A stretch of 44,780 nucleotides of DNA, taken from the NCBI GenBank assembly GCA_964490075.1, contig CAZBBK010000045.1:1-44780 (forward strand). The letters run 5' to 3'. The notes beneath the pieces are model-generated. The model was given only the letters and a program-made list of their open reading frames with translations. It searched no databases and was not told the origin of the DNA. The stretch is from an uncultured Gemmatimonadota bacterium (GTDB lineage: Bacteria; GCA-2686955). Shown one piece after another: positions 7,843 through 36,497 of the stretch. Both the position numbers and the translations under genes were made by a program. Numbering within the stretch: the stretch's first letter is position 1; the number at the start of each line of letters is the position of its first letter.

Positions 7843-7847
7843 ACCGG

Positions 7848-14665: not shown

Positions 14666-14689
14666 TATAGACTCCCCGACCCTGTCCGG

Positions 14690-16066
<1,377 letters not shown>

Positions 16067-19868: not shown

Positions 19869-19960
19869 GCGCGTTGCCTGTCCGAAGCTGTGGGTTTGGA
19901 GTGTGGGCGCAGCGACGCGCTGTGCGACCGCTGCCGATCGAGCAAAAGGGGTGCAGGGTC

Positions 19961-19975
19961 GCAAGTCTCACGCCA
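19961..19975 (-). promoter_or_regulatory. sigma54 -24/-12 promoter of the metalloprotease
   Basis: Minus strand TGGCGTG-AGAC-TTGC, 93 bp upstream of ATG 19868. Confidence 0.6.
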
Positions 19976-20150: not shown

Positions 20151-20516
20151 TCAGAAGGTCTCAGCCGACTCGCGACAGAGCACACACTGGGTCGCGAAGG
20201 GCAGCGCGCGCAAGCGGGCGACCGGAATCGCCTTACCGCAACGCTCACAATGGCCGTACGATCCCTGCTCGAGCAGCTCCAGGGCGTGCTCGATGCGCCG
20301 GATCCTCTCGCCCTTGCGCTGCAGCAGCGCGGCGTCCATGTCGTCGTCGATATGGCGAGAGACCTCGTCGCCCCAATCGGTCGGGCGAGCGCCGTCGAAG
20401 GACAGGGCTTCGGCGCGGTGACGGCGCAGGATTTCGAGCGCCTCGGCCAGGGCCTCGCCCCGAAGCTGCTCGAGAATCTCGCGCAGGTCTTGCCGCCGGT
20501 CCGGTGCTGATCCCAT
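20151..20516 (-). CDS. DksA/TraR C4 zinc-finger transcription factor
   Basis: Coiled-coil tip DWGDE, YGHCERCG...RLRALP...CVLC; RBS GGAGG. Confidence 0.9.
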   Translation of the reverse strand: MGSAPDRRQDLREILEQLRGEALAEALEILRRHRAEALSFDGARPTDWGDEVSRHIDDDMDAALLQRKGERIRRIEHALELLEQGSYGHCERCGKAIPVARLRALPFATQCVLCRESAETF

Positions 20517-20590
20517 GGCTGCCTCCGAGGTGACTCACTCCGCGGACGACTTGCCGCGCAGGGGAAGCGTCAGTTGCTTCGGTGCCGCGC

Positions 20591-20620
20591 AGGATAGGAA
20601 GCCACTCGCGCGCTTGTCAA
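20591..20620 (-). promoter_or_regulatory. putative sigma70 promoter of the DksA/TraR gene (TTGACA-18-TATCCT)
   Basis: Minus strand TTGACA at 20620-20615 and TATCCT at 20596-20591. Confidence 0.6.
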
Positions 20621-20715
20621 AGAGTATGCTGGAGAGAACGGGCCCGCGAGGGCTGGGCTCCGCCCATCCGACCGACTCCGAACCGTCCCCAGGCACAGGC
20701 CGGGATCGAGCACCG

Positions 20716-21705: not shown

Positions 21706-22511
21706 ACGGGCGCATCGATCGGCATCTTGGCGCGGCCTTCGGCCTGATCTCGATCGCCTTTCTGGCCTCCTTCCGCGCCGGCAATCGATTTGATTTCGAG
21801 GTGCCGATCGCGCTCCGCGCCGCCTATCTGGTCGTGGCGGTGGCGTTCCTCATCCACCATGGCCGACGCACACGAGGCACCAGGGAGTTCATTCGTTTTT
21901 GCGTGGCGGTCGCCGGGCTGGCCTACACAGCCGAGGTGATCGGAGTGCAGACCGGCTGGCTCTTCGGTCACTACCACTATGGCGACCGCCTGGGTCCCTT
22001 GATGCCCGGCGGCGTGCCGGCCGCGATTCCGGTCTTCTGGACTCTCCTGATCTACGCGGCGGACGACTACGTGACCCTGGCCTTCGGGGATGGGGTGCCT
22101 CGCTGGCTCAGGGCGGGCGCAGTCGGGGCCGTGGTGGCCGCGTGGGACCTGATGATCGATCCGATCGCCGTGGCCTACGATTGCTGGAGCTGGGAGGCCG
22201 GCTCGATGCCCACCGTGTTCGGCATTCCGGCGACCAATGCGCCGGGATGGTGGCTGATCGGCACCCTGGCGCTGCTCGTCGCCGTCCCCCGAAGGGGTAG
22301 CGGCCGGCCGCGGGGCGCTCCCTGGTTCGACCACCTGCCGGCCCTGGCTCTGGTCTGCGCGGCGGCCAACAACGCCCTGGCAACCGCGGAGCTGGGATTC
22401 CCCGGGGCAGGCGTGGCGGGTCTGATGGCTCTGGCCCCCTACGGAGTCGCCGCGTGTGCCCGCAAGGAGTGGCAGCGGCGCGCCCAGCCGAGCGCGGCCA
22501 GGGCGGGGTAG
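21702..22511 (+). CDS. CruF/DUF422 carotenoid 1,2-hydratase family membrane protein
   Basis: AEVIGVQTGWLFGHYHY, GVPAAIPVFW, WDLMIDP, FGIPATNAPGW; TTG start overlaps the UbiA stop (TTGA). Confidence 0.8.
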   Translation: MNGRIDRHLGAAFGLISIAFLASFRAGNRFDFEVPIALRAAYLVVAVAFLIHHGRRTRGTREFIRFCVAVAGLAYTAEVIGVQTGWLFGHYHYGDRLGPLMPGGVPAAIPVFWTLLIYAADDYVTLAFGDGVPRWLRAGAVGAVVAAWDLMIDPIAVAYDCWSWEAGSMPTVFGIPATNAPGWWLIGTLALLVAVPRRGSGRPRGAPWFDHLPALALVCAAANNALATAELGFPGAGVAGLMALAPYGVAACARKEWQRRAQPSAARAG

Positions 22512-23266
22512 GGAAGAGTCACCAAAGCACCGACGAGGGCCTCGCCCACTCGGCCGAGGTCGACGGCAAAGACCACCAACAAGGTGGTAAGCGCGAGACA
22601 CATCGGCACCGGAGCCGAGTAGCGCCATCGATCATGGGTCGCCATCCAATCCTCTCGAACCTGTCCCGCAGCCGCGTTCTCCAGGCGGTCGGAGAGGGCG
22701 AAGATCGCGGCCGAGACACCGAACCAACCGGCGAAATTGGAGAGCGGAATCCGGCCGAAGTAGGCTCCACCCTCCACCCAATCCCAGGCGCCGATCGCGA
22801 CACAGATCGGATCGAGCAGGAAGTCCCAGGCACAGAGCGCAGAGGCGGCGAAGAAGATCCGCGGGCCACGCCCGGAGGAGCGCGGCAGAGCCATCCGGGT
22901 CATCGCGTGCGCCAGGTAGGCGAGCAGGTACCAGGCGAGGGGTATCATCAGCGGCACCTGGCCGGCGATGCGCCAGCCCAACACGTCGCTGTAGCCGTAC
23001 GATCCGAAGATCCAGCCCCTCGAAGCACCGATCCACTCCGCGGCCAGGGAAATCCCCATGGCACTGAACGCCAAGGCGAGCGCGTTTCTGAGGCCGCCTC
23101 GGGCCAGCGCGTGGATCCAGGTGAGCGCGAGCACGAGCACGCCCTGCGCCGCCACCACCCCTCCCTCGAGCGACAGTCCCGAACCGAGCGCGGCTCTGCG
23201 GAACACGACGGAGAGCGCGAAGGCGACCAGGCACGAGTCGTAGAGTCTGCGCATCGCCGGCGTCAA
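22439..23266 (-). CDS. CruF/DUF422 carotenoid 1,2-hydratase family membrane protein (second copy)
   Basis: AEWIGASRGWIFGSYGY, VPLMIPLAW, WDFLLDP, IPLSNFAGWF; TTG start after AGGAGG. Confidence 0.85.
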   Translation of the reverse strand: MTPAMRRLYDSCLVAFALSVVFRRAALGSGLSLEGGVVAAQGVLVLALTWIHALARGGLRNALALAFSAMGISLAAEWIGASRGWIFGSYGYSDVLGWRIAGQVPLMIPLAWYLLAYLAHAMTRMALPRSSGRGPRIFFAASALCAWDFLLDPICVAIGAWDWVEGGAYFGRIPLSNFAGWFGVSAAIFALSDRLENAAAGQVREDWMATHDRWRYSAPVPMCLALTTLLVVFAVDLGRVGEALVGALVTLPYPALAALGWARRCHSLRAHAATP

Positions 23267-23299
23267 CGAAGGGCCTCCTGCCGCGATCCGCCAGACTTG

Positions 23300-24619
23300 T
23301 CAGGGGGCGCGCATCCGATCGATGAGCTTGTCCTCGCCGCCGCCTTCGAAGAGGGTCCGGGACGCGAGATCATCGGGTCGCGTCTCCCAGTACTGCAGGC
23401 CGTTGTACTCCACCCACTGCCCCGGAAGCACGTCGAGCTCGATGCTCCAGGGCTGGGGATCGCGAATCGCCTTGGCCAACGCCAGGCCGTCGGCCAGGCG
23501 GATGTTGGTCTCGGTCTCGAACACCACATGGCGCACCAGGCGTACGATCTCGAGCCACGACAGCCCCTTCACCTGGGCGTGAAACGAGTGGATGAAGTCG
23601 ATCCAGCGGTGCACCCGTTCCATTTGGGAAGCGACATAGTCGACCGAGGAGATGGTGTCTCGGAAGAAGAGGATGTACTCCCAGGCCTCGCGCCCTCCCA
23701 GGACCTGCTTTCCCTCGGGGATCCGCAGCGCCTCGGAGAGCACGGGGGTGACGAACACCGGGATACCGCCCAGCAAGTCGACCATCTTCTCGAAGCTGAT
23801 CCGCTCCTGGATCAGGTAGGCGTGCACCGGAATGCCGGAGGCGTACTCGACCTGGTCGAGCATCAGGGGAGCGCCCCCCAGCAGGTAGGCGTCGCGCAGA
23901 CGATCCGCGCGCTTGCGGTTCGGAAAGGCCACGCGGGTATCGAGCGGCAGGTTCATCAGGTGCATCTTGCGTCGCTGAGATTCGATCTCGGCGAGGAAGA
24001 ACACACTCGGAACGCCCATGTAGAGGATGTTGACGTGATCCAGATCGAGCGGTCGCGGGGGGCGGCTGGAGGCGGCGTGCTCCTTGGCGCGCTCGAGCTC
24101 CTCGGCGAACTGCCTGTCCTGGATATTGCCACGGGCGTGCTCGGCCTTGGTCAGGCCGATGCCCATGAAGGGGGCCGAATCGGGGGCGGCCTCCACGTAG
24201 GGGACATGGATCCTGGCCGGCCCGGTCAAGCGAGCGTTGACATCGATCAGCGTGAGATCCGCCGAGGTCCGCACCCGGGCCTGGGCGAGGACCTCGTAGA
24301 CCATCGTGTGCGGCGGAACCTCGAAGTCGCCAGGGTCTTCGACGGCCCCGGTGACCGCAACCGTGATCGGCTCCTCCTCTGCGTGCGGAGCGAGGGCCAC
24401 CCGCGGAGTGGGATGCAGCCGGGTCCAAGCGACTTTGGCGATGCCGATCCCGACTACCCCGAAGCCGATGATCACCACGGCGTAGATGAGCCTGCGGATC
24501 ACCGGCGCCCGCCGGGCGATGGCGCTTCCCAACGCTGCTTTGCCACCGTTCGAGGCGCTACGCGCGCTTCGGTCCAGGTAGCGACGTCGCTCTTGCCGAT
24601 AGTCGCGTTCGCCGGCCAT
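23300..24619 (-). CDS. membrane-anchored SLBB domain + divergent LCP (LytR-CpsA-Psr) family protein
   Basis: N-terminal TM, VAVTGAVEDPG SLBB motif, LMNLPLDTRV, RLRDAYLLGG, FEKMVDLLGGIPV, ETNI. Confidence 0.75.
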   Translation of the reverse strand: MAGERDYRQERRRYLDRSARSASNGGKAALGSAIARRAPVIRRLIYAVVIIGFGVVGIGIAKVAWTRLHPTPRVALAPHAEEEPITVAVTGAVEDPGDFEVPPHTMVYEVLAQARVRTSADLTLIDVNARLTGPARIHVPYVEAAPDSAPFMGIGLTKAEHARGNIQDRQFAEELERAKEHAASSRPPRPLDLDHVNILYMGVPSVFFLAEIESQRRKMHLMNLPLDTRVAFPNRKRADRLRDAYLLGGAPLMLDQVEYASGIPVHAYLIQERISFEKMVDLLGGIPVFVTPVLSEALRIPEGKQVLGGREAWEYILFFRDTISSVDYVASQMERVHRWIDFIHSFHAQVKGLSWLEIVRLVRHVVFETETNIRLADGLALAKAIRDPQPWSIELDVLPGQWVEYNGLQYWETRPDDLASRTLFEGGGEDKLIDRMRAP

Positions 24620-24625
24620 GACTGA

Positions 24626-26254
24626 TCAGTGCCCCGTCTTGAGAGCCTCGAGCCACTCCCGCAGCTCGGCGTTTCCGGGCTCGATCTGCAGAGCGCGCTC
24701 CCAGGCGGCGATCGCCTCGTCCACGCGGCCCTGCTTCACGTAGATCGACCCCAATCGGACGAACGAGAGTTCGAGATATGGAGCGATATCGATCGCCACC
24801 AGACACTCGTTTTCCGCGCTCTCGTAGTCCCCGGCGAAGTAGTGCCCGACGGCCTGCACCAGGTGGCGCAGGGCTTCGTTGGTGCGGGTGCTGCGCTGAA
24901 TGACCACGTTCTTGTCGCGGATCACCTCCTCGAGGCGCCGAACCTGCTCGTTGAGCTCTTGCTCGAGGCCCTGGTTCTTCGCCTCCTTCTCGAGGGACTC
25001 CTTCTCGGCCTCGAGCGACGCGCGTTCCTCGATCTCCTTCTGAAGCAGCTTGCGCTCCGACTCGAACTTCTCTTGCAGCGCCGCCTCGATCTTCTTGCGC
25101 TCGCTTTCCAACAGGCTGGCCTGATGCTTGGACAGCGACTCCGCGACCTCGAAGGCCACCTGCTCCTTCTTCTTCTTGAGCGCCTCCTCGAGCTGCCGCC
25201 GATTCATGAACTTCTGGTAGACCTTCGAGGTGTCGTAGAGGAAGGTCAGCCCCACGGTCGGCGCGCCCAGACCGCTGTCGTACAGCTCGCCGATCGGCAC
25301 GGCGTATTCCCAGGCGGTATCGATCGAGACGCGCAGCCTGCGGATGTAGGTGTACTCCTTGCCATCGAGCAGATCGAAGCCCGGATCGCGCCACTCGCGG
25401 CGCAAGAACTCGAAGCTCAGCCCCAGCGCCGCCTGGGTCGCGCGGCCTTCCCCGGTCGCGTTGTCGCGAATCCCGGCACGAGTCTGCAGCCGCTGATTGA
25501 GGAAATCGGCCTCTGCGCCCGCCAGGATGCGGATTGGAGCGGATCCACCGACGTCGAGGGCTTCGTACTCGGCGTCGACGTCGAAACGATAGGCGGTCGC
25601 GAGGTAGCCGACTCCGAGCCGGTAGCGCCTGGCCGCGGGGTCTTTGTCGAGCTTGTTCAGAGCGAGATTGGGCTCGAGCAGATTGAACGCGGCCAGACCG
25701 ATCTGTAGCCGGTCGTTCACGCGGAAGAGCAGCCCAGCATCGAGGCTGTAGTTGGCGTTCGATGCTCCGCCGCGCAGGAAGATCGGATCGGTTACCACCT
25801 CGTGTTGATACTGAGGATGCAGGGCCGAGAAGCTGAACCCCTTGCTGAGGCGGCGACCGGTGAGGCCGAGCGAGAGGCGGCCACGTTGCCAGACTCCGAC
25901 GCCATACGAGAACGCGAGATCGTACTCGCGGTAGATCTCATCCCCCGTCGTGACCCCCGCCAGCGCCAGCGTTCCCAGCTTGCCGAAGGGATAGGCGACC
26001 CCCAGGTACTGGTCGCTGATCCCGACCTCGTCGATCCCCAGGTAGGGGCGGGTGTACGAGGTAGAGAACTGGATCAAGGTGATCCCTTGCAGACCCGCCG
26101 GATTGTAGAAGGCGGCGGAAGGATCGCTCGCCAACGCGGTGAAGGCCTGCCCCATTCCGGCGGCACGGATGCCGCCCGGGATCTCGAACGCGGCGAAAGC
26201 GGAGCCGCTCAGACAGAGACTGCCGAGAAGCGCGATCGTGGGTCTGCGTCTCAT
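24626..26254 (-). CDS. PorV/PorP(SprF)-like outer-membrane beta-barrel fused to a long coiled coil and TPRs
   Basis: GIRAAGMGQAFTALASDPSAAFYNPAGL N-terminus, amphipathic strands, E/K-rich coiled coil (about aa 345-460), TPR LGSIYVKQGRVDEAIAAWERALQIEP; ATGA overlap with upstream gene. Confidence 0.75.
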   Translation of the reverse strand: MRRRPTIALLGSLCLSGSAFAAFEIPGGIRAAGMGQAFTALASDPSAAFYNPAGLQGITLIQFSTSYTRPYLGIDEVGISDQYLGVAYPFGKLGTLALAGVTTGDEIYREYDLAFSYGVGVWQRGRLSLGLTGRRLSKGFSFSALHPQYQHEVVTDPIFLRGGASNANYSLDAGLLFRVNDRLQIGLAAFNLLEPNLALNKLDKDPAARRYRLGVGYLATAYRFDVDAEYEALDVGGSAPIRILAGAEADFLNQRLQTRAGIRDNATGEGRATQAALGLSFEFLRREWRDPGFDLLDGKEYTYIRRLRVSIDTAWEYAVPIGELYDSGLGAPTVGLTFLYDTSKVYQKFMNRRQLEEALKKKKEQVAFEVAESLSKHQASLLESERKKIEAALQEKFESERKLLQKEIEERASLEAEKESLEKEAKNQGLEQELNEQVRRLEEVIRDKNVVIQRSTRTNEALRHLVQAVGHYFAGDYESAENECLVAIDIAPYLELSFVRLGSIYVKQGRVDEAIAAWERALQIEPGNAELREWLEALKTGH

Positions 26255-29200
26255 CGAGCCACCCCCACCGTGCCCGAGTAGACACGGTTCCCCGCGTCAT
26301 ACTGATACACGTAGAGCCCGCCCGGGACCAGCGAGCCCCCTGCGTCGCGCCCGTCCCACGAGAACACGACGGTCTCGAAGCTGAAGTTCTGGTCCACCGA
26401 GAGCGCGGCCACCAGCTCGCCGCGCCGATTGAACACCTTGAACGGGTTCGATCGAGCGGATCCGGTCGGGAATTGAATCACCAGGGCGTCGTTCTTGTCG
26501 TCCACCAGTCCGGGCGAGATAATCCTGGGGTCCGGCTCGTTGAAGAGCCCCGAGAGAGTGGTGGTGAAGAAGAGGTTGCACGATCGCCAGTTCGGCACCG
26601 GCAGCCCCGCCTCGAGATCGGCGGCCTCCACCTCCACCGAGAGCCGCCGGCCCAGACCGAAGGAGATGGCGTCGGTCCGAATCGAGATCTGGACGTTGCG
26701 CAGGACTCCCTCCGGATCTTCCTCGGCATCGATGGTGACGGTGCCGACCCGGGCCGCGTCGGCCGCGGCATCGCCCGCCGCGACCAAGAGCAGCTGCTCG
26801 GCCGTGGAGAGGTTCAGGATGACCAGGATCTCGTCGAGATCGATTCCGGTGTCCGCGAGCCGCGGCTCCTCGATCTCGATCACGATGAGCAACGAGTCCT
26901 TCGGCACATTGACCGCTTCCTGGACCATGCTGCCGATATCCGCACAAAGAGAACGGCCCAACGAATCGGGATTGGTGTAGGTGGTGTCGCCGACCAGACG
27001 GCCTTGCTCGAGGAGGGTAATGTCGATGTCGGGGGCGATCAGGTCGGGTGATGCGGTGAAGCTCCACTCGTAGGGCGGAACCATCGGGTTCTCTGCCTTG
27101 TCGGTCGCGCTGACGCGCATCATCACCGGACCGGCTGGAAATGCCTCCTCCGGTATCCAGACGATCCGCTTCCCCGCGTTGCAGGGCGGATCGCAGGCCT
27201 GGAACTCCAGGTCGTCGAGCGGGATATTTGCGTAGCCGCCCATGGCGGGGGTTTCGTAGGAGAGCACGACCGTGGAGTCGACCAGCCCCGAGATGTCGTC
27301 GTCGATCTCCACCTCCACGGAAACCGATGTGGGAGCGCTCTCTCCATCGGCCGGGATGGTCTTCACCACGAAGGGGGGGTTGAGATCCTCCACTGTGTAG
27401 AAGTAGTAGGCCTCGTCGACCAACTCGTTGCCGGCCCAGTCGAGCGCGGTCACCAGAAAGCGCACCTCGGAGTTGAAGCGGTACTGGGGGTTGGGGAAGT
27501 AGGTCCACTTGGTGCAGTGCGGCGCACCTGAGTACCCCGTGCGACCGTTGCCACAGGCATCGGTGAACCTAGCGTCGAGCGATACGTTGAGCGTGTCGGG
27601 CTCGTCCCCCGAGCGGGGGATGATCCTGAGGATCCGCGGGCGCAGCTCGGCCTTGTCGGCGTCGCTGAGAACCTCCGCGGCCTGGGCGGCCGTGGTACAG
27701 GCCGGGCAGAACCACTGCCACGACCTGATGCGAATGCCGGCACCGTCGTCGTTGATCTGAATCTCGGTGCGCTGATCCTCGCGAACGTCGGTCTGCGCCA
27801 GCGCCGGCGAGGTCGAACCGTCGATCGGGGGATAGGCGATGTAGGGCGGCTGCTCGTCATCGATGATGGTGATGAAGGAGAAGAGCCGCGGATCGCGGAG
27901 GGGGTTGCCGACGAAATCCTCCGCGAAGAGCACCACGGTGACCGTGTCGTTGGGGAAGAAGAGCTCCCGCAGCGGCTCATCTTCGGGCTCGAGTCCGGTC
28001 CAGAAGAAGTCGGCGTAGGTGAAGTAGTCGATCGACACCAAGCGGTCGTTGATCTGTGTCAAGGAGCTGTCGGGAAGATCGACGGTCACGGTGTCGCGAT
28101 AGATGCCCCCCAGCTCGGTCTCACGCTTGAAAGAGACGGTCATGACCACCGTGGAGTCCCTGACCGCCGTGTTGTCCTCGATGCGGGCGCGGATCGGTGT
28201 GACCAGCGGCACGTCGCCCAGGGTGTCGGCCAGGGCGCCGGGATAGGTCGAGCCGGGGACCACGAAAGGGGACTCGATGTCGGAGGCGATCGAGTAGAAC
28301 CACTGCTCGGTCACGATCGGGTGGCCCCCCTCGTCGTGGGCCTCGACCACGATCGACATATTGAGGCCCGCTCCGAGCGAATCCTCCGGCCAGTGGACCA
28401 GCGCTTCGGCCTTCCACTGGGCGTCTCCGCCGGGCTCGTCCGCCGGCGTACGGATCTCCACCAGCTCGTTCGGCACCGGGAAGTCGTTGACCGTGAACTG
28501 AATCGTGGCTCGGTCGACGCCTTCGTCGAGGGTGCCGACCACACCGCCGGTCATGATCTCGTCGTAGATGCGGATCACGGTGTCGTGGTTCCGGAGGACG
28601 TTGGTGGCGCCGGGCGCCGGGCTCATCGCCCAGCTGTAGGGAGTGCCCCCGAGCAGGACCCTGACCACGCCGGGGCGCAGCAGCTCGGCATCTTCGCCGC
28701 GTGACACGCCCGCGATCAGGTCAGGCCGGCCGTCGTCGTCGATGTCGGCGATCGCCACCGCCTCGCCCATTCTCTCGCTGCCGGATGCGCCGTAGATCGC
28801 CGTGTGGGATTGGTCCGCGACGGAAACCGGGGCGCCACTGAAGTTCGACCGTCCGGGCATGAAGAAGGCGCCGCCACGCTTTCCGGCGCGAGCGGGGGTA
28901 CCGATCAAGAGATCCTCGGAGGCTCCCCAGTCGCGGTGGCCCTCGGGATGGAACTGACCCACCGCGAGTCGCACGGCGATCGAATCGGGCGCACCGTTCA
29001 GACCGGAGTCGTCGAAGCGCAACCAGGGCGGCGAGCTGTCGAGGGAGATCTCGGCCGGCCACGGCGCGCCGGTGTTGCGAAGCACGAAGATCGCACCGAA
29101 GAAGCTCGACGCTCCGACGGTGCAGAGGTCGGTGAGGCCGTCGCCGTCGATGTCGCCGCTGGCCAGCCCCCCGCCAAAGGCGCGCCCGATGCCATAACCC

Positions 29201-30156
29201 TCGATCTTCACCGTGGCGGCGACCTGGTCGAGCTCGAAGATCGTGCCGGGGCCGTCGAAGAAGGTGCTGCCGTCGCCGCCATCCAGCAGGTAGACCACTC
29301 CGACATCCTCGGTTCCGAGACCGGGAGCGCCCACCGCCAGGTCGGCACCGGGGATTCCGAGCGACAGGTCGAGGGTCGTCAGAGCCTTGCCCACCGCTTC
29401 CAGAGACTCCCCCCCCATGATTGTCACGTCGGCCGCGTCGCCGACCGAGAAGCTCCCCTGCCCCAACGGGCTCTTCATGACATAGACGGCACCGGCCTGG
29501 AACTGGCCGAGATTGCGCGCCCGCGGCGCACCCATCGCCAGGTCGACCTGCCCGTCGCCGTCGAAATCGCCCACGGCCAACGAGGATCCGAGGCGATCCT
29601 GAGCATCGACGCCGGAGAAGTCGACCACCGCTCCGGTCACCGGATCGTCGATGTCCCGCGGCGAGAGATCGGCCGAGATCGGGCCGGCAACGATCCACAC
29701 CTGGCCGGCCAGATCGGTGCCGAAGGAGGTGCCGATGACGAGGTCGGCGGCGCCGTCCGGCGCGCCGCCCGACGGAGAGATCACGTCTTCGATCAGAAGA
29801 GCGGTGCCCAGCTCGTGATTGGCCGCGGGCCCGATGTAGGTGGCGAAGGCCGGTGTATCTTTCAAGCGGATCTCGGTGGGGAAGCCCGAGCCGCCCTCGA
29901 CCACGTACACGGCTCCCGATGCGCCGCCGTTGACGGTCGAGAGCTGCGGTGCGCTGACGACCAGGTCGTTCACGCCATCGCCGGTCAGATCGCCGGCCGC
30001 GAGCGCCGCGCCGAAACTCGACCCCGCGCCGGCACCGACGATAGTCACATTGGTGTCTTTGGTGGCGGTATCGTACTCCGACAGACCGAGCGCGCCCGGC
30101 GCCAGGGCGAGAGTCGCGGGAATCGCTGCTGCGCAGAGGATCGATCGGTGGATCAC
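26251..30156 (-). CDS. large adhesin: 7 FG-GAP (integrin-alpha-like) repeats, 5 Ig-like repeats, T9SS type-B-like C-terminal domain
   Basis: FGAALAAGDLTGDGVNDLVVSAP-type repeats; DxxPPxV...AxDxxGN repeats; tail ISPG..DDKND...VFNRRGELV...WDG...GLYVY...GTVGVAR. Confidence 0.85.
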   Translation of the reverse strand: MIHRSILCAAAIPATLALAPGALGLSEYDTATKDTNVTIVGAGAGSSFGAALAAGDLTGDGVNDLVVSAPQLSTVNGGASGAVYVVEGGSGFPTEIRLKDTPAFATYIGPAANHELGTALLIEDVISPSGGAPDGAADLVIGTSFGTDLAGQVWIVAGPISADLSPRDIDDPVTGAVVDFSGVDAQDRLGSSLAVGDFDGDGQVDLAMGAPRARNLGQFQAGAVYVMKSPLGQGSFSVGDAADVTIMGGESLEAVGKALTTLDLSLGIPGADLAVGAPGLGTEDVGVVYLLDGGDGSTFFDGPGTIFELDQVAATVKIEGYGIGRAFGGGLASGDIDGDGLTDLCTVGASSFFGAIFVLRNTGAPWPAEISLDSSPPWLRFDDSGLNGAPDSIAVRLAVGQFHPEGHRDWGASEDLLIGTPARAGKRGGAFFMPGRSNFSGAPVSVADQSHTAIYGASGSERMGEAVAIADIDDDGRPDLIAGVSRGEDAELLRPGVVRVLLGGTPYSWAMSPAPGATNVLRNHDTVIRIYDEIMTGGVVGTLDEGVDRATIQFTVNDFPVPNELVEIRTPADEPGGDAQWKAEALVHWPEDSLGAGLNMSIVVEAHDEGGHPIVTEQWFYSIASDIESPFVVPGSTYPGALADTLGDVPLVTPIRARIEDNTAVRDSTVVMTVSFKRETELGGIYRDTVTVDLPDSSLTQINDRLVSIDYFTYADFFWTGLEPEDEPLRELFFPNDTVTVVLFAEDFVGNPLRDPRLFSFITIIDDEQPPYIAYPPIDGSTSPALAQTDVREDQRTEIQINDDGAGIRIRSWQWFCPACTTAAQAAEVLSDADKAELRPRILRIIPRSGDEPDTLNVSLDARFTDACGNGRTGYSGAPHCTKWTYFPNPQYRFNSEVRFLVTALDWAGNELVDEAYYFYTVEDLNPPFVVKTIPADGESAPTSVSVEVEIDDDISGLVDSTVVLSYETPAMGGYANIPLDDLEFQACDPPCNAGKRIVWIPEEAFPAGPVMMRVSATDKAENPMVPPYEWSFTASPDLIAPDIDITLLEQGRLVGDTTYTNPDSLGRSLCADIGSMVQEAVNVPKDSLLIVIEIEEPRLADTGIDLDEILVILNLSTAEQLLLVAAGDAAADAARVGTVTIDAEEDPEGVLRNVQISIRTDAISFGLGRRLSVEVEAADLEAGLPVPNWRSCNLFFTTTLSGLFNEPDPRIISPGLVDDKNDALVIQFPTGSARSNPFKVFNRRGELVAALSVDQNFSFETVVFSWDGRDAGGSLVPGGLYVYQYDAGNRVYSGTVGVAR

Positions 30157-30884
30157 GGCTGGCCCCCAACCGATAGGGTCGCGTCAGCATCCTGCGAGCC
30201 CCACATCCGATCGGCGGGACCGGGGGCCGCCTCGTCGGCCGGCGTCAGGTTGGAGCGTACGATCTTGATCTCGACCCGCCGATTGCGCTGGCGCCCCTCG
30301 GGCGTGTCGTTGGAGTCGATCGGCTTGTGCTCGCCGTATCCCATCAGCTGAAGATCCTCGGGCCCGAAGTAGCCCCGATCGAGGTAGTAGCGGACGACGG
30401 AGACCGCGCGGGCCGCCGACAGCTCCCAGTTGGACGGGAACTGAGGGGTGTGGATCGGCACGTTGTCGGTGTGGCCCTCCACACGCACCGTCGCGGGTCC
30501 ATAGGTCAGCAGGTTGTCGCGGATGATTCGGTAGGCCTCGTCGAGCACCGGCAGGGCCGCGGGTTTGAGCTGCGCGCGCCCGGAGTCGTAGAGCACCTTG
30601 CCGGAGATCCGGAGCACCACCTCGCCCGGCTGGAACTCCCGCTCCACCAAGTTCTCGCGCTCCTGGTACTCGGCCAGCGCCTTTTCCAGCTCGCCGATCC
30701 TCCCGGCCTTCTCCACCGCGAAGAAGAGGATGAAGAACACCATGAGCAGCGACACCAGGTCGGAGTAGGTCACCACCCAGGGCGGCGACCCGGTCACCTC
30801 TCGGTCGACGATTCTGGGCCTGAGCAGGTCCTTCCAGCCGCTGCCCCGGCGCGCTTCTTCCTTGGAGGTTGGTCTCAGGTCCAT
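30153..30884 (-). CDS. motB: stator protein MotB (OmpA-like peptidoglycan-binding domain)
   Basis: WVVTYSDLVSLLMVFF TM with conserved Asp; EGHTDNVP, SNWELSAARA, NRRVEI. Confidence 0.92.
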   Translation of the reverse strand: MDLRPTSKEEARRGSGWKDLLRPRIVDREVTGSPPWVVTYSDLVSLLMVFFILFFAVEKAGRIGELEKALAEYQERENLVEREFQPGEVVLRISGKVLYDSGRAQLKPAALPVLDEAYRIIRDNLLTYGPATVRVEGHTDNVPIHTPQFPSNWELSAARAVSVVRYYLDRGYFGPEDLQLMGYGEHKPIDSNDTPEGRQRNRRVEIKIVRSNLTPADEAAPGPADRMWGSQDADATLSVGGQP

Positions 30885-30909
30885 GGTCGCTGCTTCCCGC
30901 CGCCCGACG

Positions 30910-31653
30910 TCACTTCGTGGCCACGAACGTGTCGAGCTTCTCTTTCACCAGGCGGGTCGTATCTCCGGCCTGAATGGAGAGCACGCCCATGATCATCATG
31001 TCGCGGACCTTCTGATCTTCCTCGTTGTGAGTTCGGAACTTCGCCGCGATCGGCACGAACACCAAACCGGCCAGGGCGATTCCGTAGAAGGTCGTCACCA
31101 GTGCGACCGCCATGTTGCGGGGAATCGCCTCGGTGTTCTCGACGTTGTTGAGCATCAAGATCAGACCGATGACGGTACCGAGCAGTCCGAACATCGGCGC
31201 CACCTGCCCGAGCTGTGCGAAGACGCGCTCCGAGAGGCGGTACTCTTCTGCCAGAATCTGCGAGCGGGTCTGCATGATGTACTGGATCTGGTCGGGATCG
31301 ACGCCGTCGGCGAGCAGCTCCACGCCCGCGCTCAGGAAGTCCAGGTTGCGCCCGCCGCCCTGCACCGAGAGGTTGACGAAGCCCTCCCGCCGGGCGCGCT
31401 TGGCGACATCCAGGAGCAGCTCGTAGCCGTCGTCGCAGCGCGGCGGCGGCGCGAAGATCACGCGCAGGTAGCGCACGAACGAGCCCCCGAGCTGGCGCAC
31501 CCGGTAGGTGACCAGCGCGGAGAGGAAGGTGCCGCCCACAGTGATCGCCACCCCCATCGGATTGACGAACCAACTGGGATCGCCTTCTTGCATCACGGCG
31601 GTCACGATCAGCGCGACCCCCATGAGGAGGCCGATGATACTCAGGACCCCCAT
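30910..31653 (-). CDS. motA: stator protein MotA
   Basis: ARREG, APMFGLLGTVIGL, MAVALVTTFYG, FVPIA motifs; four TM segments. Confidence 0.92.
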   Translation of the reverse strand: MGVLSIIGLLMGVALIVTAVMQEGDPSWFVNPMGVAITVGGTFLSALVTYRVRQLGGSFVRYLRVIFAPPPRCDDGYELLLDVAKRARREGFVNLSVQGGGRNLDFLSAGVELLADGVDPDQIQYIMQTRSQILAEEYRLSERVFAQLGQVAPMFGLLGTVIGLILMLNNVENTEAIPRNMAVALVTTFYGIALAGLVFVPIAAKFRTHNEEDQKVRDMMIMGVLSIQAGDTTRLVKEKLDTFVATK

Positions 31654-31868
31654 TGGTTCTCCTTTCGTTGCAGGATCTTCGCCGGCCCGGCGCCGATCTC
31701 GCGCCGGTAGGCGATCACGCGTTCGACCAGCTCGGCCGGTGTATCGCGCACCACGATCGACTTGCCGGTCACGAGCGTGATGATCGTATCGGGCCGCTCC
31801 CGGATCTCCTGGATCAGCTCCGCATTGAGCACCATCTCACCTCCGTCGAGTCGCCGCACGCGAATCAT
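31641..31868 (-). CDS. flbD: flagellar FlbD/SwrD family small protein
   Basis: MIRVRRLDG..MVLNAELIQEI..RPDTIITLVTG..IVVRD; canonical position upstream of motA. Confidence 0.88.
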   Translation of the reverse strand: MIRVRRLDGGEMVLNAELIQEIRERPDTIITLVTGKSIVVRDTPAELVERVIAYRREIGAGPAKILQRKENQWGS

Positions 31869-31887
31869 CTTCGCCCCGCGGTCCGAA

Positions 31888-33426
31888 TCATGCCTGGGGC
31901 TCTGTCACTTCCGCTTGGGGCGCTCCCGGGGCCGAGATCCGACCCGAGGTGATCAGGGAACGGGCCGCGCGAACGACCCTGAGCTGAGCGTCCGAAACCT
32001 GCTCATCCGACTGGTAGGGCAAGACTTCGAGCTCTTCTTCCAGCATCTCCAAGACACGCTCGGAGCAGTTGCGGAAGAACTTCTCTCTGATCTCTCTCTG
32101 GGCGCGCTTGAGCGCGGACGCCAGGTGAGAGAGCTCCATGGCGCCGATGATGTGCTTGATCGCGATCTCGTCGAGCGCCAGAACGTCCTCGAATAGGAAG
32201 ACCTCCTCCTTGGCCACTCGGGCGAGCTCCGGATCGCGGGCGGCGAGCGCGTCGATGAGCTGCTTCGCGAGGGTCGTATCGACCCGCGACATCACGCTCC
32301 TGAGAACATCCTCGCCGCCGATCGAGATCTCGTCGGGCCGCAGGATCTCGGTATCGAGCTTGCTTTGCAGGACCTCCCGCAGGGTCTGCAGGTCGGCGGC
32401 GCTGGCGCGCACGCCACGCCCCATCTCCTCCATGACCCTGCCTTGCAGGTCGTGGCTGAAGCCGGAGAGCAAGTTGGCCGTGCGGTCGGTGGGGAGCGCC
32501 GTCAGAATGACGGCGATGTCGTGCGCCTCATGGTCCTTCAGCAAGCCGAGCATCTGCTCGTCGCTGAGAGCCTTGAGGAATGAGAAGCTGCGCTCTTGAA
32601 TCGGGACGATCGCGTTCCTTGGCATGGCCTCCGGTTCCGTTTCCGTGATCGTGGCTTCCGCAAGGTCGCCCTCGCCTCCGCCACCTTCTTCGGTAATGCC
32701 GCTGCCCGCGAGGTCCATCTCGGCACCGGCATCGGCGGCCTCTTCCTCCGCGGCGCGGCGCTGGCCGATGGCGCGCAAGATGAGGAACAGGCTGAGCACG
32801 ATCAGGGCCGCCAGGAAGAGCCCCAGCACCGCCAGCGAGATCAGGCGGCTACGTTCGGCGGCTCCCATCGACTCATCGAAATCGAGCGGGCGCAGATCGA
32901 CGACATCGCCTCGATCCAGATCCAACCCGGCCCAGATCGGCACCATGGAGCGGATGCGTAGGACGAGGGCCTGATCCAAATCGGGCTCGTGGAACACCCG
33001 CACCTGGATCCTCGTGATGGCCGATCGGTTGCGGGCGTCGGTGACGGTGCGCGAGCGCGCGACCGGCAGTCCCGGGAGCGATGCGAGCGGATCGAAGGCG
33101 GTGCCTTCGAGGGCCGCGTCCACCCTCGTTTGCGCCACATCGATGTCGACCGAAACCAGCACCCGATGCTCGCCCAGCATCTCGCCCAGCATCGCCTCGA
33201 TGCGGGAAGACATCTCGCGCTCGAGTGCGACCTCCTCGACCGATCGCTGGGAAAGCAGCGCTCCGGCGGCCGTATCGGGCTGGGCCAACGATGTGATCTG
33301 GGCGTTGCAGGGCAGCGAAGCCACCGAACAAAACGCCAACAGGGCGAGGAGGCTGCCGCAGCACTTGCCTCTTCGCCCATCACGAGATTCGGTATGGTGG
33401 AAGATTGCGTTTGAGATCGCGGTCAC
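31888..33426 (-). CDS. FliF ring (RBM3-like) domain - TM - FliG middle/C-terminal domain fusion protein
   Basis: Signal peptide; EREMSSRIEAMLGEMLG..VSVDID, LPG, ITRIQV, AGLDLDRGDVVDL (FliF C-terminal); TM; FSFL..HEAHDIAVIL, GGED, DPELA..VFLFEDV, FFRNCSER..EEE (FliG). Confidence 0.8.
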   Translation of the reverse strand: MTAISNAIFHHTESRDGRRGKCCGSLLALLAFCSVASLPCNAQITSLAQPDTAAGALLSQRSVEEVALEREMSSRIEAMLGEMLGEHRVLVSVDIDVAQTRVDAALEGTAFDPLASLPGLPVARSRTVTDARNRSAITRIQVRVFHEPDLDQALVLRIRSMVPIWAGLDLDRGDVVDLRPLDFDESMGAAERSRLISLAVLGLFLAALIVLSLFLILRAIGQRRAAEEEAADAGAEMDLAGSGITEEGGGGEGDLAEATITETEPEAMPRNAIVPIQERSFSFLKALSDEQMLGLLKDHEAHDIAVILTALPTDRTANLLSGFSHDLQGRVMEEMGRGVRASAADLQTLREVLQSKLDTEILRPDEISIGGEDVLRSVMSRVDTTLAKQLIDALAARDPELARVAKEEVFLFEDVLALDEIAIKHIIGAMELSHLASALKRAQREIREKFFRNCSERVLEMLEEELEVLPYQSDEQVSDAQLRVVRAARSLITSGRISAPGAPQAEVTEPQA

Positions 33427-33439
33427 GGTTCCCCCCGCT

Positions 33440-33474
33440 TGGGGCGGCGCAACCGCTTTCGTTGCGCCGCCCCA
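33440..33474. other. perfect 14-bp intercistronic hairpin
   Basis: TGGGGCGGCGCAAC-CGCTTTC-GTTGCGCCGCCCCA between wzc and the FliF-FliG gene; no U-tract. Confidence 0.6.
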
Positions 33475-33512
33475 GGGTTCGATCGACTGGGCGCGAAGGA
33501 GCTTTACCCGGA

Positions 33513-35687
33513 TCAGGCTTCCGCCTGCGCGGTCTCCTCTGCGTAGCCATAGGTTTCGGTGTAGCGGTAGCCGTAGTAGTGGTAGTACCCGAAGCCGCTC
33601 TCCGCCGCGTTGTTGAGCAACGCACCGACGAAGTTGGCACCCACTCGACGCAACCGCTCGACCGTCTTCTGCGCGGTGTGACGCTGCGTCGCCTCTTCCT
33701 TCAGCATCAGCAGCACGCCATCGACGCGCGAGGCCACCAGCGAAGTGTCGACGATCGGAAGCACCGCGGGAGAGTCGACGATCACGAAGTAATCGTTGGC
33801 GCGCAGGTGCTCCAAGAGCTGGTCGAAGCGCTCGGAGTTGAGCAGCCGTGCCGGGTTGACCGGCTGGCGACCCGCGGTGATCACCTTGAAGCCACCGATC
33901 TCGGTGTCTTTCAGGATCTCGTCGACCGTGAGCTCGTCCGACAGGTACTCGCTCAGCCCACCGTCGCGCTCCAGGAGGAAGATCTGGTGCAGATAGGTGC
34001 GGCGCAGGTCGCCGTCGATCAGCACCACCTTCCTGCCGTCGAGGGCCATCGAGCGGGCCAGATTCACGGCGGTGAGGGTCTTCCCCTCGCCCTGGAAGCC
34101 GGAAGTCACCAGGAGGCTCCAGGTATCACGCTTGGGGAAGGAGTACTCGATGTTGGCGCGCACGATGTTGTAGGCCTCGGCGATCCGCGCCCGCGGCTTG
34201 GAGAAGTCGACGTAGCGCTCGTCCTGCCCGAAGCGCGGGATGACTCCCACGATGGGGGTGCCGACCTGGCGCTCGATGCGGGCATTGAACTTCACGCGTG
34301 GATCGAGGTTCTCGATCACGATCGCCAGGATGCCGCCGATGACGCCGCCAACGACGTAGCCCATGGCCATCAAGAGCCAGATATTCGGGCGTACGGAGGG
34401 AGCGATATCGGCTGCCTCGAGCACCTGAAGATTGCCCTGAGCGGTCTCCTTGACCATCCGGGCCTCTTCGTACTTCTTCAACAGGGAGAAGTAGGTGTTC
34501 TCCAGACCGCTCTTCTCTCGTTCCAGGCGGGCCAGGGCGAGGTTGTCCTCGGGCGCGGTGCGAAGCCGCTCCTCGATCTCGTTGATCAGGCGCCGGATTT
34601 CGCTCTGGCGCGCCTTCTCACGCATGATCTCGGTGCGTCCGTTGGCAAGGCGTTGCACCAGATCCTGACGGACCGGATTCACAGCGCGGGTCTCGACGCG
34701 CACGCCTCGTTCGTCGTTGGCGTCCAACATGCCGCGCAGACGATCGACGCTGCGCCGCAGCGAGCGGACCCGCGGGTGCTCCTCGGTGTAGTTGGTCAGG
34801 AGCTTGGCCAGCTCGGTCTCGAGGTTGATGATCTCGACGTGCAACGGCGTCGAGTAGGTCGCCTCCTTCACGATCAGCGAGTCGGTCATCGCCAAACGCG
34901 CCGCCTGGTAGTCCAGCGCCGTCTCGCTCGAGCGGATGCTGACCTGGGCGTCGTTGTAGGCGTTGGTGAGAGACGACAGGCGACCGATCCGAGCCGCGTT
35001 TTCGTTCTTGAGGTTGCGGTAGCCCTTGCTCTGCACGAAGTCCTTGATCCGCTCCTCGGCCTTCATCAGCTGGATCTTGGTCTTCTCGAGCTGCTCGCCG
35101 AGGGTCTGGTAGGCACCGCCGGTCGAGGAGCTGTAGATCGTTTCGACTTCATCGACCGCCACCGCCGCCATCTCGCGGCAGATGCTCTGCGCCAGCTCCC
35201 TCTGGGGATGCGTCACGGCGATCTCCAGGATGTTGGTCTGGCGCTGAGGCGTGAAGGCGATGTGGGAGCGCAGCTCACCGGCGGACATCGGCAGATTGAG
35301 CCGCGTCAAGACCTTCTTGAGAACGTCCTCGGTCCTCAGGATCTCGACGAAGGTGGTCATCGACTGCGAGGGCACGTAGGTGAGCTTCTGGTTCATCACC
35401 ACCAACCCGCCGCCCGATTCCAGGAGCAGCCGGGTGGTCGACCGGAAGAACTCCTCCTGCGATGCGGCGCGCCAGCCGCCCACCGCCAGGCCGAGAATCG
35501 AGACGCACAGGATCAACCTCCAGCGCCGCCGCACCATCGCCATATAGTGCCGAATATCAAAGGCCCCGAGATCGCTCCCGCCGCCGCCGAGGAGATCGCT
35601 CATCCCCGAGTCGGAGTCCAACGGGTCGTTCAGACCGTCGATTTCGATCTGCTTGCTTCCATGGAGTCGTCGTCTGTCTGGACCCAT
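33513..35687 (-). CDS. wzc: polysaccharide co-polymerase / tyrosine autokinase (Wzc/GumC family)
   Basis: Two TMs flanking a coiled coil (YTEEHPRV), Walker A QGEGKT, IDGDLR, IVDSP, C-terminal Tyr cluster GYYHYYGYRY. Confidence 0.92.
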   Translation of the reverse strand: MGPDRRRLHGSKQIEIDGLNDPLDSDSGMSDLLGGGGSDLGAFDIRHYMAMVRRRWRLILCVSILGLAVGGWRAASQEEFFRSTTRLLLESGGGLVVMNQKLTYVPSQSMTTFVEILRTEDVLKKVLTRLNLPMSAGELRSHIAFTPQRQTNILEIAVTHPQRELAQSICREMAAVAVDEVETIYSSSTGGAYQTLGEQLEKTKIQLMKAEERIKDFVQSKGYRNLKNENAARIGRLSSLTNAYNDAQVSIRSSETALDYQAARLAMTDSLIVKEATYSTPLHVEIINLETELAKLLTNYTEEHPRVRSLRRSVDRLRGMLDANDERGVRVETRAVNPVRQDLVQRLANGRTEIMREKARQSEIRRLINEIEERLRTAPEDNLALARLEREKSGLENTYFSLLKKYEEARMVKETAQGNLQVLEAADIAPSVRPNIWLLMAMGYVVGGVIGGILAIVIENLDPRVKFNARIERQVGTPIVGVIPRFGQDERYVDFSKPRARIAEAYNIVRANIEYSFPKRDTWSLLVTSGFQGEGKTLTAVNLARSMALDGRKVVLIDGDLRRTYLHQIFLLERDGGLSEYLSDELTVDEILKDTEIGGFKVITAGRQPVNPARLLNSERFDQLLEHLRANDYFVIVDSPAVLPIVDTSLVASRVDGVLLMLKEEATQRHTAQKTVERLRRVGANFVGALLNNAAESGFGYYHYYGYRYTETYGYAEETAQAEA

Positions 35688-35764
35688 CTTTTTATACCTC
35701 GTCTGTTCGCCCCCGCCACCACGACGGAAGCCTTGGACTACCGGCTACGGTTCGATCGATCTCA

Positions 35765-36415
35765 TCACGAGAAACGGTCATAGAGGAAGATACTCACGCC
35801 GAGGAGATACACGGTGTTGGTGAGATAATGCCACTTGAACTTGAAGTTCTCGCGGACATAGAGAGCATCGCCCGGATAGAGCATCAGATCTTCGCGCTCG
35901 CGAATATCTCCTTCGCTCTTCCAGACTGATTCGAGAGAGATGTTCTTCACCTCTCCCGTGTTTTTGAACACGCGCACACGCTTGACCTCTTGATCGATCG
36001 CGCCTCCGGCCAGGGTGAGGGCATCGATGATCGAGATCGGCTCGAAGAGCTGATAAGTCCCCGGCGAACGAACAGCGCCCTGCACCGAGAGATTCGAACG
36101 GAAGAACCTGGTCACGTAGACCGTAACCGCCGCGTCGCGGGCGTACGGCTTGATCTTCTCCGCGATGATCTCCGAGAGCTGCCGGGGGGTAAAGCCGCGC
36201 GTGAACACGTCGCCGACCAACGGGTAGCTGATCATTCCATCGGGCCGGACTTGCGTCGTGAGGCTGAACTCGGGATGGTCCAGAACCTGGATCTTGACGC
36301 CATCTCCGCCGCGGATCGTGTATTCCTCCGCCACGGCCTGTCGGCCACAGAAGAGAAAGAGCAGCACGCTGAGCGCTGCGATCCACTTTGTTGACGCTGA
36401 TCTGGTCGATCTCAC
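35765..36415 (-). CDS. wza: polysaccharide export protein (Wza/OPX family, short form)
   Basis: YTIRGGD, VRPDGMISYPLVG, SLBB VQGAVRSPG, LTLAGG, LYPGD, C-terminal amphipathic helix. Confidence 0.88.
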   Translation of the reverse strand: MRSTRSASTKWIAALSVLLFLFCGRQAVAEEYTIRGGDGVKIQVLDHPEFSLTTQVRPDGMISYPLVGDVFTRGFTPRQLSEIIAEKIKPYARDAAVTVYVTRFFRSNLSVQGAVRSPGTYQLFEPISIIDALTLAGGAIDQEVKRVRVFKNTGEVKNISLESVWKSEGDIREREDLMLYPGDALYVRENFKFKWHYLTNTVYLLGVSIFLYDRFS

Positions 36416-36482
36416 GATCTAACTCCCGTGGCGCCCCTTGAGCCGGAGGCAGGGACGCCGATGTCGGCTGCGACGCTGAATG

Positions 36483-36497
36483 GCAAGGACCGTGCCA
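36483..36497 (-). promoter_or_regulatory. sigma54 -24/-12 promoter of the wza-motor-adhesin operon
   Basis: Minus strand TGGCACG-GTCC-TTGC, matching the TGGCACG-N4-TTGC consensus, 68 bp upstream of the wza GTG. Confidence 0.8.

Follow-up and report, generated by a model that had tools for sequence, protein, structure and literature searches.

The window analyzed here is a 44,780-nt stretch of DNA, contig C45 of a 5.7-Mb bacterial genome that is 95% complete, with a GC content of about 67%. We describe in it a run of ten minus-strand genes that encode, in order, a polysaccharide export protein (wza), its co-polymerase (wzc), a putative rotor protein that joins parts of the flagellar proteins FliF and FliG, FlbD, the stator subunits MotA and MotB, a secreted adhesin, an outer-membrane barrel, an SLBB-LCP protein and a cruF-like protein. 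An initial annotation, made from the letters of the sequence, had proposed these ten co-directional genes, and domain scans with Pfam and NCBIfam find all ten open reading frames (ORFs), in one direction between positions 36415 and 22439, with domains that agree (Table 1). The genes are tightly packed. Intergenic gaps along the run measure 77, 86, 19, 25, 6 and 33 nt, flbD runs 13 nt into motA, and the start/stop overlaps at motB/adhesin and at adhesin/barrel that had been proposed are present, at 4 nt each.

Table 1. Features of the ten-gene run in the window, in order of transcription, with the domain scores or notes that identify them.
Feature	Positions	Strand	Evidence or note
sigma54-type -24/-12 element, TGGCAC-N5-TTGC = TGGCACGGTCCTTGCC	36482..36497	-	67 nt upstream of wza start
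wza, short Wza/OPX export protein, 216 aa	35765..36415	-	Poly_export 72 bits + one SLBB
wzc, co-polymerase/tyrosine autokinase, 724 aa	33513..35687	-	Wzz, GNVR, TIGR01007 163 bits
FliF/FliG fusion, putative rotor protein, 512 aa	31888..33426	-	FliG_C 91 bits, FliG_M 31.7 bits
flbD, FlbD/SwrD family, 75 aa	31641..31868	-	FlbD 86 bits
motA, MotA-type stator A subunit, 247 aa	30910..31653	-	MotA_ExbB 91 bits
motB, MotB-type stator B subunit, 243 aa	30153..30884	-	MotB_plug 36.6, OmpA 64.9 bits
adhesin, secreted surface protein, 1301 aa	26251..30156	-	FG-GAP 102 bits, putative CHU_C tail
outer-membrane barrel + tetratricopeptide repeat (TPR) tail	24626..26254	-	PorP_SprF 34.1 bits, TPR
SLBB-LCP (LytR-CpsA-Psr), membrane-anchored glycopolymer transferase-like, 439 aa	23300..24619	-	Pfam/NCBIfam
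cruF-like, carotenoid hydratase-family membrane protein	22439..23266	-	Caroten_synth 130 bits

All ten genes had been placed behind one sigma54 site. A sigma54-like site is there, in front of wza, but in the window its pattern is no commoner than expected by chance (12 matches with at most 2 mismatches, 12.5 expected). Like GG-N10-GC elements precede wza by 49 nt in the related genome G004 (L027:537) and by about 75 nt in the related genome G001 (L016:6817).

The putative rotor protein starts with a signal peptide or first transmembrane helix, followed by a periplasmic domain that resembles the third ring-building motif (RBM3) of FliF (residues ~60-185), a transmembrane helix (~195-217), an acidic/Gly linker, the FliG middle domain (290-359) and the FliG C-terminal domain (393-497). 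The representative of its database cluster begins 34 codons later (478 aa). For the FliG part, the rotor family profile matches solved FliG structures with E=3e-63, and TIGR00207 gives 132 bits against a cut-off of 226.7, over model positions 107-326 only. Pfam sees no FliF in the window protein alone (neither YscJ_FliF nor YscJ_FliF_C matches), and the FliF part of the proposed fusion holds through profiles, intermediate sequences and fold. A search with the N-domain alone (the first 274 residues) retrieves 34 proteins among 1.84 billion representatives, mostly 430-580 aa long. Amongst 34 such sequences (the window protein and 33 others), FliG_C is found in 30, YscJ_FliF_C in 7 and YscJ_FliF in 1. 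The family profile also matches Salmonella FliF, over residues 372-511 only, with E=1.4e-9. Canonical FliF ORFs from other genomes, in four cases out of four, align to the rotor N-domain in two pieces that flank the beta-collar: rotor ~54-132 with FliF ~236-305, and rotor ~135-223 with FliF ~361-452, that is, RBM3 minus the collar and then the second transmembrane helix. The AlphaFold2 model built from the alignment (predicted local distance difference test, pLDDT, 80) has an alpha-beta-beta-alpha-beta RBM fold, a long membrane helix, a disordered linker and the FliG middle and C-terminal domains; it was taken in place of the model made without an alignment, which has a pLDDT of 46 and is unusable. 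With this model, Foldseek finds FliG middle/C-terminal structures at E ~1e-11 and the FliF RBM3/S-ring at E ~1e-3, with a TM-score of ~0.5 on the target.

Just as informative is what the protein keeps and what it has lost. The equivalents of the torque-helix residues R281 and D288/D289 (E. coli numbering) are conserved in its FliG C-terminal domain, and conservation in the N-domain is highest at residues 116-122, in a Pro-rich loop (SLPGLPV) where the collar would emerge. Absent are RBM1 and RBM2 of FliF, most of the beta-collar, the FliF C-tail and the FliG N-domain. The FliM-binding motif EHPQ occurs in 0/13 of the fusions aligned, versus 7/7 canonical FliGs (one as EQPQ). From these several lines, the rotor protein is a natural fusion, FliF(RBM3)-FliG(MC), whose build suits it to work against a stator rather than a C-ring. 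The description of the locus as a "minimal flagellar motor" was thus overstated, as only RBM3 of FliF and the middle and C-terminal domains of FliG are retained. Engineered FliF-FliG fusions of Salmonella and Vibrio form rings (PDB 8z4d/8z4g; available text of PMC11481574 and PMC10941966), which makes a one-chain rotor physically plausible. The fusion reading frames are intact, and their domain order is constant across at least five deep subfamilies. In the fusion of genome G338 (L037, G338:C79, 3-2225) we observe an additional C-terminal charged segment and a TPR resembling the tail of the barrel (E=7e-12), on the cytoplasmic end.

The stator genes are of the flagellar type. In an unrooted tree, the window MotA falls among flagellar-type MotAs, with six ExbB/TolQ-type paralogs from its own genome set apart (support 100). 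The clade that holds the genome's flagellar MotA does not include it, nor are the two proteins sisters, and we reject on this tree the possibility that it is a recent duplicate of that protein. Its closest outside relatives, at 36-40% identity, are annotated as motility protein A; all scores of the NCBIfam MotA and MotB equivalog models on the window proteins are under cut-off. The rotor-stator charge pairs of E. coli involve MotA R90 and E98 with FliG R281, D288/D289 and R297, according to the accessible text of PMC12505986. The equivalent of R90 is conserved in the window MotA. The window MotB conserves the channel Asp (YSDL) and has an OmpA-like peptidoglycan-binding domain. All MotBs aligned from clusters of this kind lack some 45 residues after the transmembrane helix (the plug/linker) that are found in both flagellar MotBs (window 30153-30884 compared with L098 3010-3753), so that stator gating in the cluster MotBs may work differently. 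The window FlbD is the only FlbD match in the whole genome. FlbD/SwrD proteins form hexameric rings, and their binding to the cytoplasmic face of MotA is, in the available part of PMC13740483, predicted and not demonstrated.

Directly behind the stator genes, the adhesin has a signal peptide, FG-GAP propeller repeats, an Ig-like region and a probable C-terminal CHU_C domain, the type-B signal for secretion by the type IX system (T9SS). The last 129 aa scanned alone score 31.0 bits for CHU_C, against a cut-off of 27. The equivalent adhesin in G506 has the same FG-GAP, Ig and CHU_C layout (tail, 39.6 bits), that of G581 has a weak CHU_C tail, and that of G128 carries Ig and cadherin-like domains instead. 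A variable passenger part is usual for adhesins. The barrel that follows consists of a beta-barrel (~20-340), a charged coiled coil (~340-450) and a TPR domain (~455-540) with an invariant Cys484. A C-terminal TPR with the invariant Cys is present in 12/12 aligned barrels, across phyla, and the coiled-coil linker between barrel and TPR has about 100 residues in the window and in G004 and is shorter elsewhere. PF11751 (PorP_SprF, cut-off 22.3) scores 34.1 bits in the window, 25.2 in G004 and 24.7 in G128; the barrel is below cut-off for PorV_fam (38.7 bits) and TIGR03519, and its look-alikes in a protein atlas are PorV, PorQ and PorP clusters of related phyla. PorP-like proteins of Bacteroidota retain type-B cargo at the cell surface, and in Flavobacterium SprB is bound by the carrier SprF (PMC9143113, as far as its available text goes). 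The genome has a T9SS translocon: the search for sprA that had been suggested finds SprA_N on contig C31 with 85.8 bits. It also has five PorV proteins over cut-off and 38 matches to the type-A C-terminal domain Por_Secre_tail (37 over cut-off), three of them on window proteins. We observe these three as secreted proteins with T9SS type-A tails (FlgD_ig / Por_Secre_tail) at 5485-7842 (+), 8114-9979 (+) and 16593-19964 (-); one is an M1 peptidase and one a thermolysin/fungalysin-like metallopeptidase. Judged by these domains, the window region appears rich in T9SS cargo.

The genes at the head of the run have all the features, by Pfam and NCBIfam, of an OPX protein (outer-membrane export of polysaccharide) with a PCP-2a co-polymerase that carries a bacterial tyrosine kinase domain. 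The C-terminal tail of Wzc is Tyr-rich and TIGR01007 is over its cut-off; the extra domain of Wza scores 31 bits for SLBB_2.

It had been noted that export-gate, rod, hook, FliM and FliN genes are missing. This is true of the window but not of the genome, as contig C36 has a full flagellar locus with its own FliF (509 aa), FliG (343 aa), MotA and MotB. The locus also encodes a rod protein, FliI, FliK, FlgD, FliL, FliM, FliN, FliO, FliR, FlhB and FlhA, then FlhF, a MinD-like ATPase, a sigma factor, FlgF/G-type rods and FlgA, and two ORFs without assignment, one of 270 aa at the FliH position and one matching MgtE_N only. Since C36 has its own FliF, FliG and MotAB, the window set is a paralogous second rotor/stator beside a canonical flagellum, and no flagellar system elsewhere in the genome depends on the window genes. 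The separate complete locus, together with the analogy to another phylum described below, argues for the independence of the window set from the flagellum in this organism.

The linkage recurs in other genomes. Close relatives of the window genome are marine metagenome-assembled genomes (MAGs) under the NCBI label Gemmatimonadota, and a reference taxonomy places it in a phylum of five species genomes. The rotor N-domain is found in four of these five, the fifth being 83% complete and in 900 contigs. In G004, which belongs to the same phylum and another family (locus GC 51%), nine genes stand in identical order with 27-52% protein identity (wza 42%, wzc 52%, FlbD 50%). In G001, wza and wzc are followed by the fusion, where the contig ends. 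We searched with the rotor N-domain a sample of the bacterial domain comprising 401 genomes, mostly one per family. Fusion-type matches come from G128, G142 and G338, and the remainder are canonical FliF or unclear. The gene order in G128 is adhesin-barrel-fusion-motA-motB. A named protein from a Cloacimonadota MAG shares a 90% cluster with a close relative of the G128 fusion. Across the 232 genomes of G128's phylum, the rotor N-domain is present in 47, in frames of about 470 aa. We took from this phylum 20 loci from 19 genomes in three families, each with flanks of ~7.6-10 kb upstream and 1.8-8 kb downstream, and searched in them for matches to the proteins of the window and of G128. Fusion, motA and motB stand together in 21/21 copies, and the adhesin is directly followed by the barrel in 15/20 loci. 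No FlbD match was found in these 20 loci. An adjoining wzc-LCP-wza triad, with LCP in the middle, is present in seven. The co-encoding of exopolysaccharide genes thus holds for G004 and for 7/20 loci, and the polysaccharide link is facultative across lineages. Synteny is kept over a GC range of 31-67% and over several phyla. The central proposal of the initial annotation, a repurposed flagellar rotor/stator linked to an adhesin, is supported by this recurrence. Neither of the two findings named in advance as fatal to it, a flagellar system relying on these genes or a linkage confined to one genome, is borne out.

Some of these loci carry further features. In L089 (G544:C42), fusion-motA-motB copies lie in tandem at 7586-10401 and 12001-14921, with no recognisable adhesin or barrel nearby. 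In L091 (G591:C7), positions 6915-9643, directly upstream of the fusion, hold an ORF of 786 aa and one of 123 aa that by eye resembles a CheY-type receiver, a hint that in some lineages the motor may be under two-component control. The loci of family f280 have a conserved P-loop (GTGKT) ORF of ~277 aa between motB and wzc (L078 12527-13360; L082 12482-13318). In sequences from metagenomes, a search of loci with the rotor profile (one alignment) finds just two weak FliG-like loci, and a scan of genome contigs finds two close relatives together with canonical actinobacterial FliG loci. The window stretch itself is present in four marine-metagenome DNA runs from one study, and no RNA run is listed for it.

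In G128's phylum the fusion is mostly found without a flagellum. FlhA is present in 24/232 genomes, and it gives no match in 44 of the 47 that carry the fusion. By family, the fusion occurs in 3/8 genomes of f126 (FlhA 8/8), 9/12 of f280 (FlhA 0/12), 32/62 of f286 (FlhA 0/62), 1/1 of f288 (FlhA 0/1) and 2/21 of f290 (FlhA also 2/21, in different genomes). Five single-contig genomes of this phylum, 96-100% complete, have one FliG_C match each, and it lies within the fusion. G142 and G338 likewise have the fusion and no FlhA match. In both the FliG and the MotA trees, which are unrooted, the fusion FliG and cluster MotA lineages branch outside the sampled flagellar clades. Because of this branching, the module could have arisen beside the flagellar motor, as a sister lineage, rather than derive late from it, and would then be a living example of a rotor/stator without the type III export core.

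We think it moderately probable that the operon encodes a non-flagellar, ion-driven rotor/stator of the cell envelope that acts on a type-B adhesin and its carrier, gliding-like in its task and flagellar-type in its motor. In the mechanism we propose, the fusion would form an MS-ring-like ring in the inner membrane with a crown of FliG. MotA5B2-like units, anchored to the peptidoglycan through MotB, would push on the torque helix of the FliG C-terminal domain and turn the ring, and in the window lineage FlbD may assist the stator units. The periplasmic face of the ring would couple to the coiled-coil/TPR tail of the barrel, directly or via further parts, with the SLPGLPV loop as a candidate docking site for that tail. 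The barrel would hold the FG-GAP adhesin after its export by the T9SS, as SprF does with SprB. The work of the motor would then be spent on the carrier/adhesin complex, most likely in moving or loading the adhesin on the surface, and the outcome could be gliding-like motility or active adhesion. In the window lineage, Wza, Wzc and LCP would deliver a co-regulated polysaccharide under a sigma54 promoter. A predicted complex of the rotor periplasmic domain (58-186) with the barrel TPR tail (445-542) scores 0.20 against a mark of 0.32, and counts neither way.

A number of observations weigh against this reading. Ring formation, rotation and the contact between rotor and barrel are steps that we infer. 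The classical charge pairs are half kept: the equivalent of FliG R297 is gone from the rotor, and that of MotA E98 is Ser in the window, the aligned MotAs of other clusters having Leu, Met, Ile or Thr there. In the G128 cluster MotB (L045, G128:C14, 10864-11448), Ser replaces the channel Asp that the other cluster MotBs keep; G128 is a member of the sole fusion-bearing family that is also flagellated. The type-B tail is borderline, as CHU_C scores 26.8 bits on the whole window adhesin against its cut-off of 27. CHU_C has no match in the adhesin tails of G004 or G128, and neither TIGR04131 nor any other NCBIfam family matches the window adhesin. Of the 20 loci of G128's phylum, four show neither an adhesin nor a barrel that can be recognised (two of the four encode other large proteins close by), and one more shows an adhesin, at a contig end, but no barrel. 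Our counts are of related genomes, which are not independent. Finally, FlhA is present in all five genomes of the window's phylum, where cross-talk between FlbD/MotAB and the flagellum is possible.

A bolder claim, which we hold only tentatively and regard as doubtful, is that the module is a working rotary motor without a flagellum that drives an SprF-like carrier and its adhesin on the cell surface in several non-Bacteroidota phyla, and so a third independently built machine for propelling or loading adhesins, made from a FliF/FliG ring and MotAB.

Amongst the alternatives, the one that survives best has the rotor/stator powering the export of type-B cargo, or its release from the T9SS translocon, via the PorP-like carrier; the module would take the role of GldLM/PorLM, with no movement. 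We consider it unlikely. The export step of the T9SS draws its energy from a proton-driven motor, which reaches outer-membrane proteins by links across the periplasm (available part of PMC12635249), and the window genome has the translocon, many cargo proteins with C-terminal sorting domains, a type-B-like tail and an adjoining PorP-like barrel. Neither the window genome nor its phylum gives any match to the GldL and GldM models (TIGR03513, TIGR03517, PF12081), which would leave the post vacant, but this silence is uninformative, since control genomes also give nothing over cut-off. The same holds in G128's phylum, where PF12081 finds nothing over cut-off in 232 genomes, fusion-bearing or not, with equally silent controls. 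SprA is present in 205/232 genomes of that phylum, including 89/98 of family f277, where the fusion is found in 0/98. It follows that the T9SS works without the fusion module in this phylum, and we reject the fusion as a general T9SS motor.

A second alternative, to which we give a smaller chance, is that the motor serves the export, spinning or regulation of the polymer handled by Wza, Wzc and LCP, with the barrel as the porin of a short OPX protein and the large protein as a polymer-associated factor. The operon does open with wza and wzc in the window, G004 and G001, and the wzc-LCP-wza triad adjoins the module in the seven loci described above. The length and domains of the window Wza resemble, by analogy, those of Class-3 OPX proteins, which need a beta-barrel porin (PMC12819527, in its available text). 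As in Wzx/Wzy export with such proteins (PMC12819527 and 10.1101/2022.04.04.486985, both in part), the short OPX stands by a Wzc-type kinase, with a barrel in the operon. Unlike in those systems, the window barrel matches the PorP_SprF/PorV families and tracks the adhesin gene rather than wza: in the 15/15 loci of G128's phylum that have both genes, it lies directly behind the adhesin. Moreover, 13 of the 20 loci have no wza or wzc within the fetched span, and eight of these 13 still have the adhesin and the barrel. We know of no rotor or stator in OPX systems. There is a precedent in Myxococcus for the coupling of a motor to a polymer, and we count it in favour of this alternative: a TolQR-type motor (Agl) is coupled to the handling of spore-coat polysaccharide via Nfs.

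It is improbable, in our judgment, that FlbD-MotAB is a second stator set and the fusion an alternative rotor subunit of the organism's own flagellar motor, merely co-located with surface genes. The presence of FlhA throughout the window's phylum, the sole FlbD of the genome in this operon and the annotation of the closest MotA relatives point that way, and flbD-motA-motB is a flagellar gene arrangement in Firmicutes and spirochaetes. The C36 locus, on the other side, has its own MotAB, FliF and FliG, and the fusion has no RBM1/2, FliG N-domain or FliM-binding motif with which to enter a canonical motor. The 44 fusion-bearing genomes without FlhA, the five closed genomes without any other FliG and the conserved linkage to adhesin and barrel argue in the same direction. 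That the genes remain from a flagellar locus since lost, or are adjacent by chance, with no joint function, has next to no probability: the Asp lost from the G128 MotB and the missing classical charge residues would fit decay, and against it stand the intact frames with constant domain order, the synteny over several phyla, and the invariant motifs in the rotor N-domain and the barrel tail.

Returning to the rotor/stator that acts on a surface adhesin, we compared it with the machines it resembles. To our knowledge, FliG and MotAB are known only as flagellar parts. With the flagellar core, the window set shares homologous RBM3, FliG middle and C-terminal domains, MotA and MotB, the channel Asp and OmpA-like anchor of MotB, and the equivalents of R281, D288/D289 and MotA R90. 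It differs in that its rotor protein is a natural fusion without RBM1/RBM2, most of the collar, the FliF C-tail, FliG_N and EHPQ, in that its MotB has no plug/linker, and in that the set is accompanied by an adhesin, an outer-membrane barrel and polysaccharide genes and not by export gate, rod, hook, filament or C-ring genes; sets of this type also occur in FlhA-free genomes.

With the gliding and T9SS machinery of Bacteroidota (GldLM, the GldJKN track, SprF and SprB; PMC12635249, PMC9143113 and PMC8986121, in their available parts), the window shares an adhesin with a type-B-like tail directly upstream of a PorP/SprF barrel, a barrel with a periplasmic C-terminal tail, a co-encoded, predicted ion-driven inner-membrane motor of the 5:2 type, and SprA in the genome. 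The proposed window motor is MotAB on FliG and not GldLM, and the organisms that have it fall outside Bacteroidota. We identified no track of the GldK/N/J type, GldK not having been searched for. According to the available text of PMC12635249, the periplasmic tail of SprF is attached to the motor-driven track, and that tail is short, twin-cysteine and GldK-linked; the tail of the window carrier is a coiled coil and TPR with a single invariant Cys. The rotor periplasmic domain shows no conserved Cys in the family alignment, so that a disulfide coupling to the rotor in the manner of SprF and GldK is unlikely.

A more distant likeness is to the Agl-Glt gliding and Agl-Nfs spore-coat systems of Myxococcus, in which a proton motor of the inner membrane is linked across the periplasm to adhesin-presenting barrels in the outer membrane, and a sister system handles exported polysaccharide. 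The Agl motors (AglRQS) are TolQR/ExbBD-like and have no FliG-type rotor, and the periplasmic and outer-membrane parts are not known to be related to those of the window. By its parts, the window system belongs neither to the flagellum nor to the known gliding and T9SS machines, and it borrows from each of them.

In the full-text literature, supplementary files (such as those of PMC12505986) not covered, we found no description of a FliF/FliG-MotAB set outside the flagellum. What the searches do find are engineered FliF-FliG fusions, studies of flagellar stator evolution, and work on Bacteroidota gliding and the T9SS. The available part of PMC12505986 names FliG once, as the rotor partner.

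One gene of the run does not fit the proposed machine. The cruF-like gene had been counted as a part of it, yet it is absent from the G004 locus, where an opposite-strand GT4 glycosyltransferase gene is found instead. In the window it is convergent with a carotenoid pair, a UbiA prenyltransferase gene at 20515-21705 (+) and a CruF-family gene at 21567-22511 (+), and the 3' ends of the two convergent CruF genes overlap by 73 nt. The cruF-like gene is probably a neighbour and not a component. We observe separately that UbiA with two CruF genes recalls the genes for C50 carotenoids (bacterioruberin-type), which are unusual for a bacterium of this group.

The idea is open to direct test, as the rotor is one small polypeptide amenable to cryo-EM, the full set is available in closed genomes, and only a few partners are predicted. 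If a conserved FliF/FliG-MotAB module independent of the flagellum is confirmed, the flagellar torque generator would be a reusable engine, and phyla with no known motor for the movement or loading of surface adhesins would have a candidate. The flagellar rotor/stator and the T9SS carriers of type-B adhesins, so far deemed unrelated, would become linked. Such a rotor/stator, working with no type III export core, would, if true, also bear on the origins of the flagellum.

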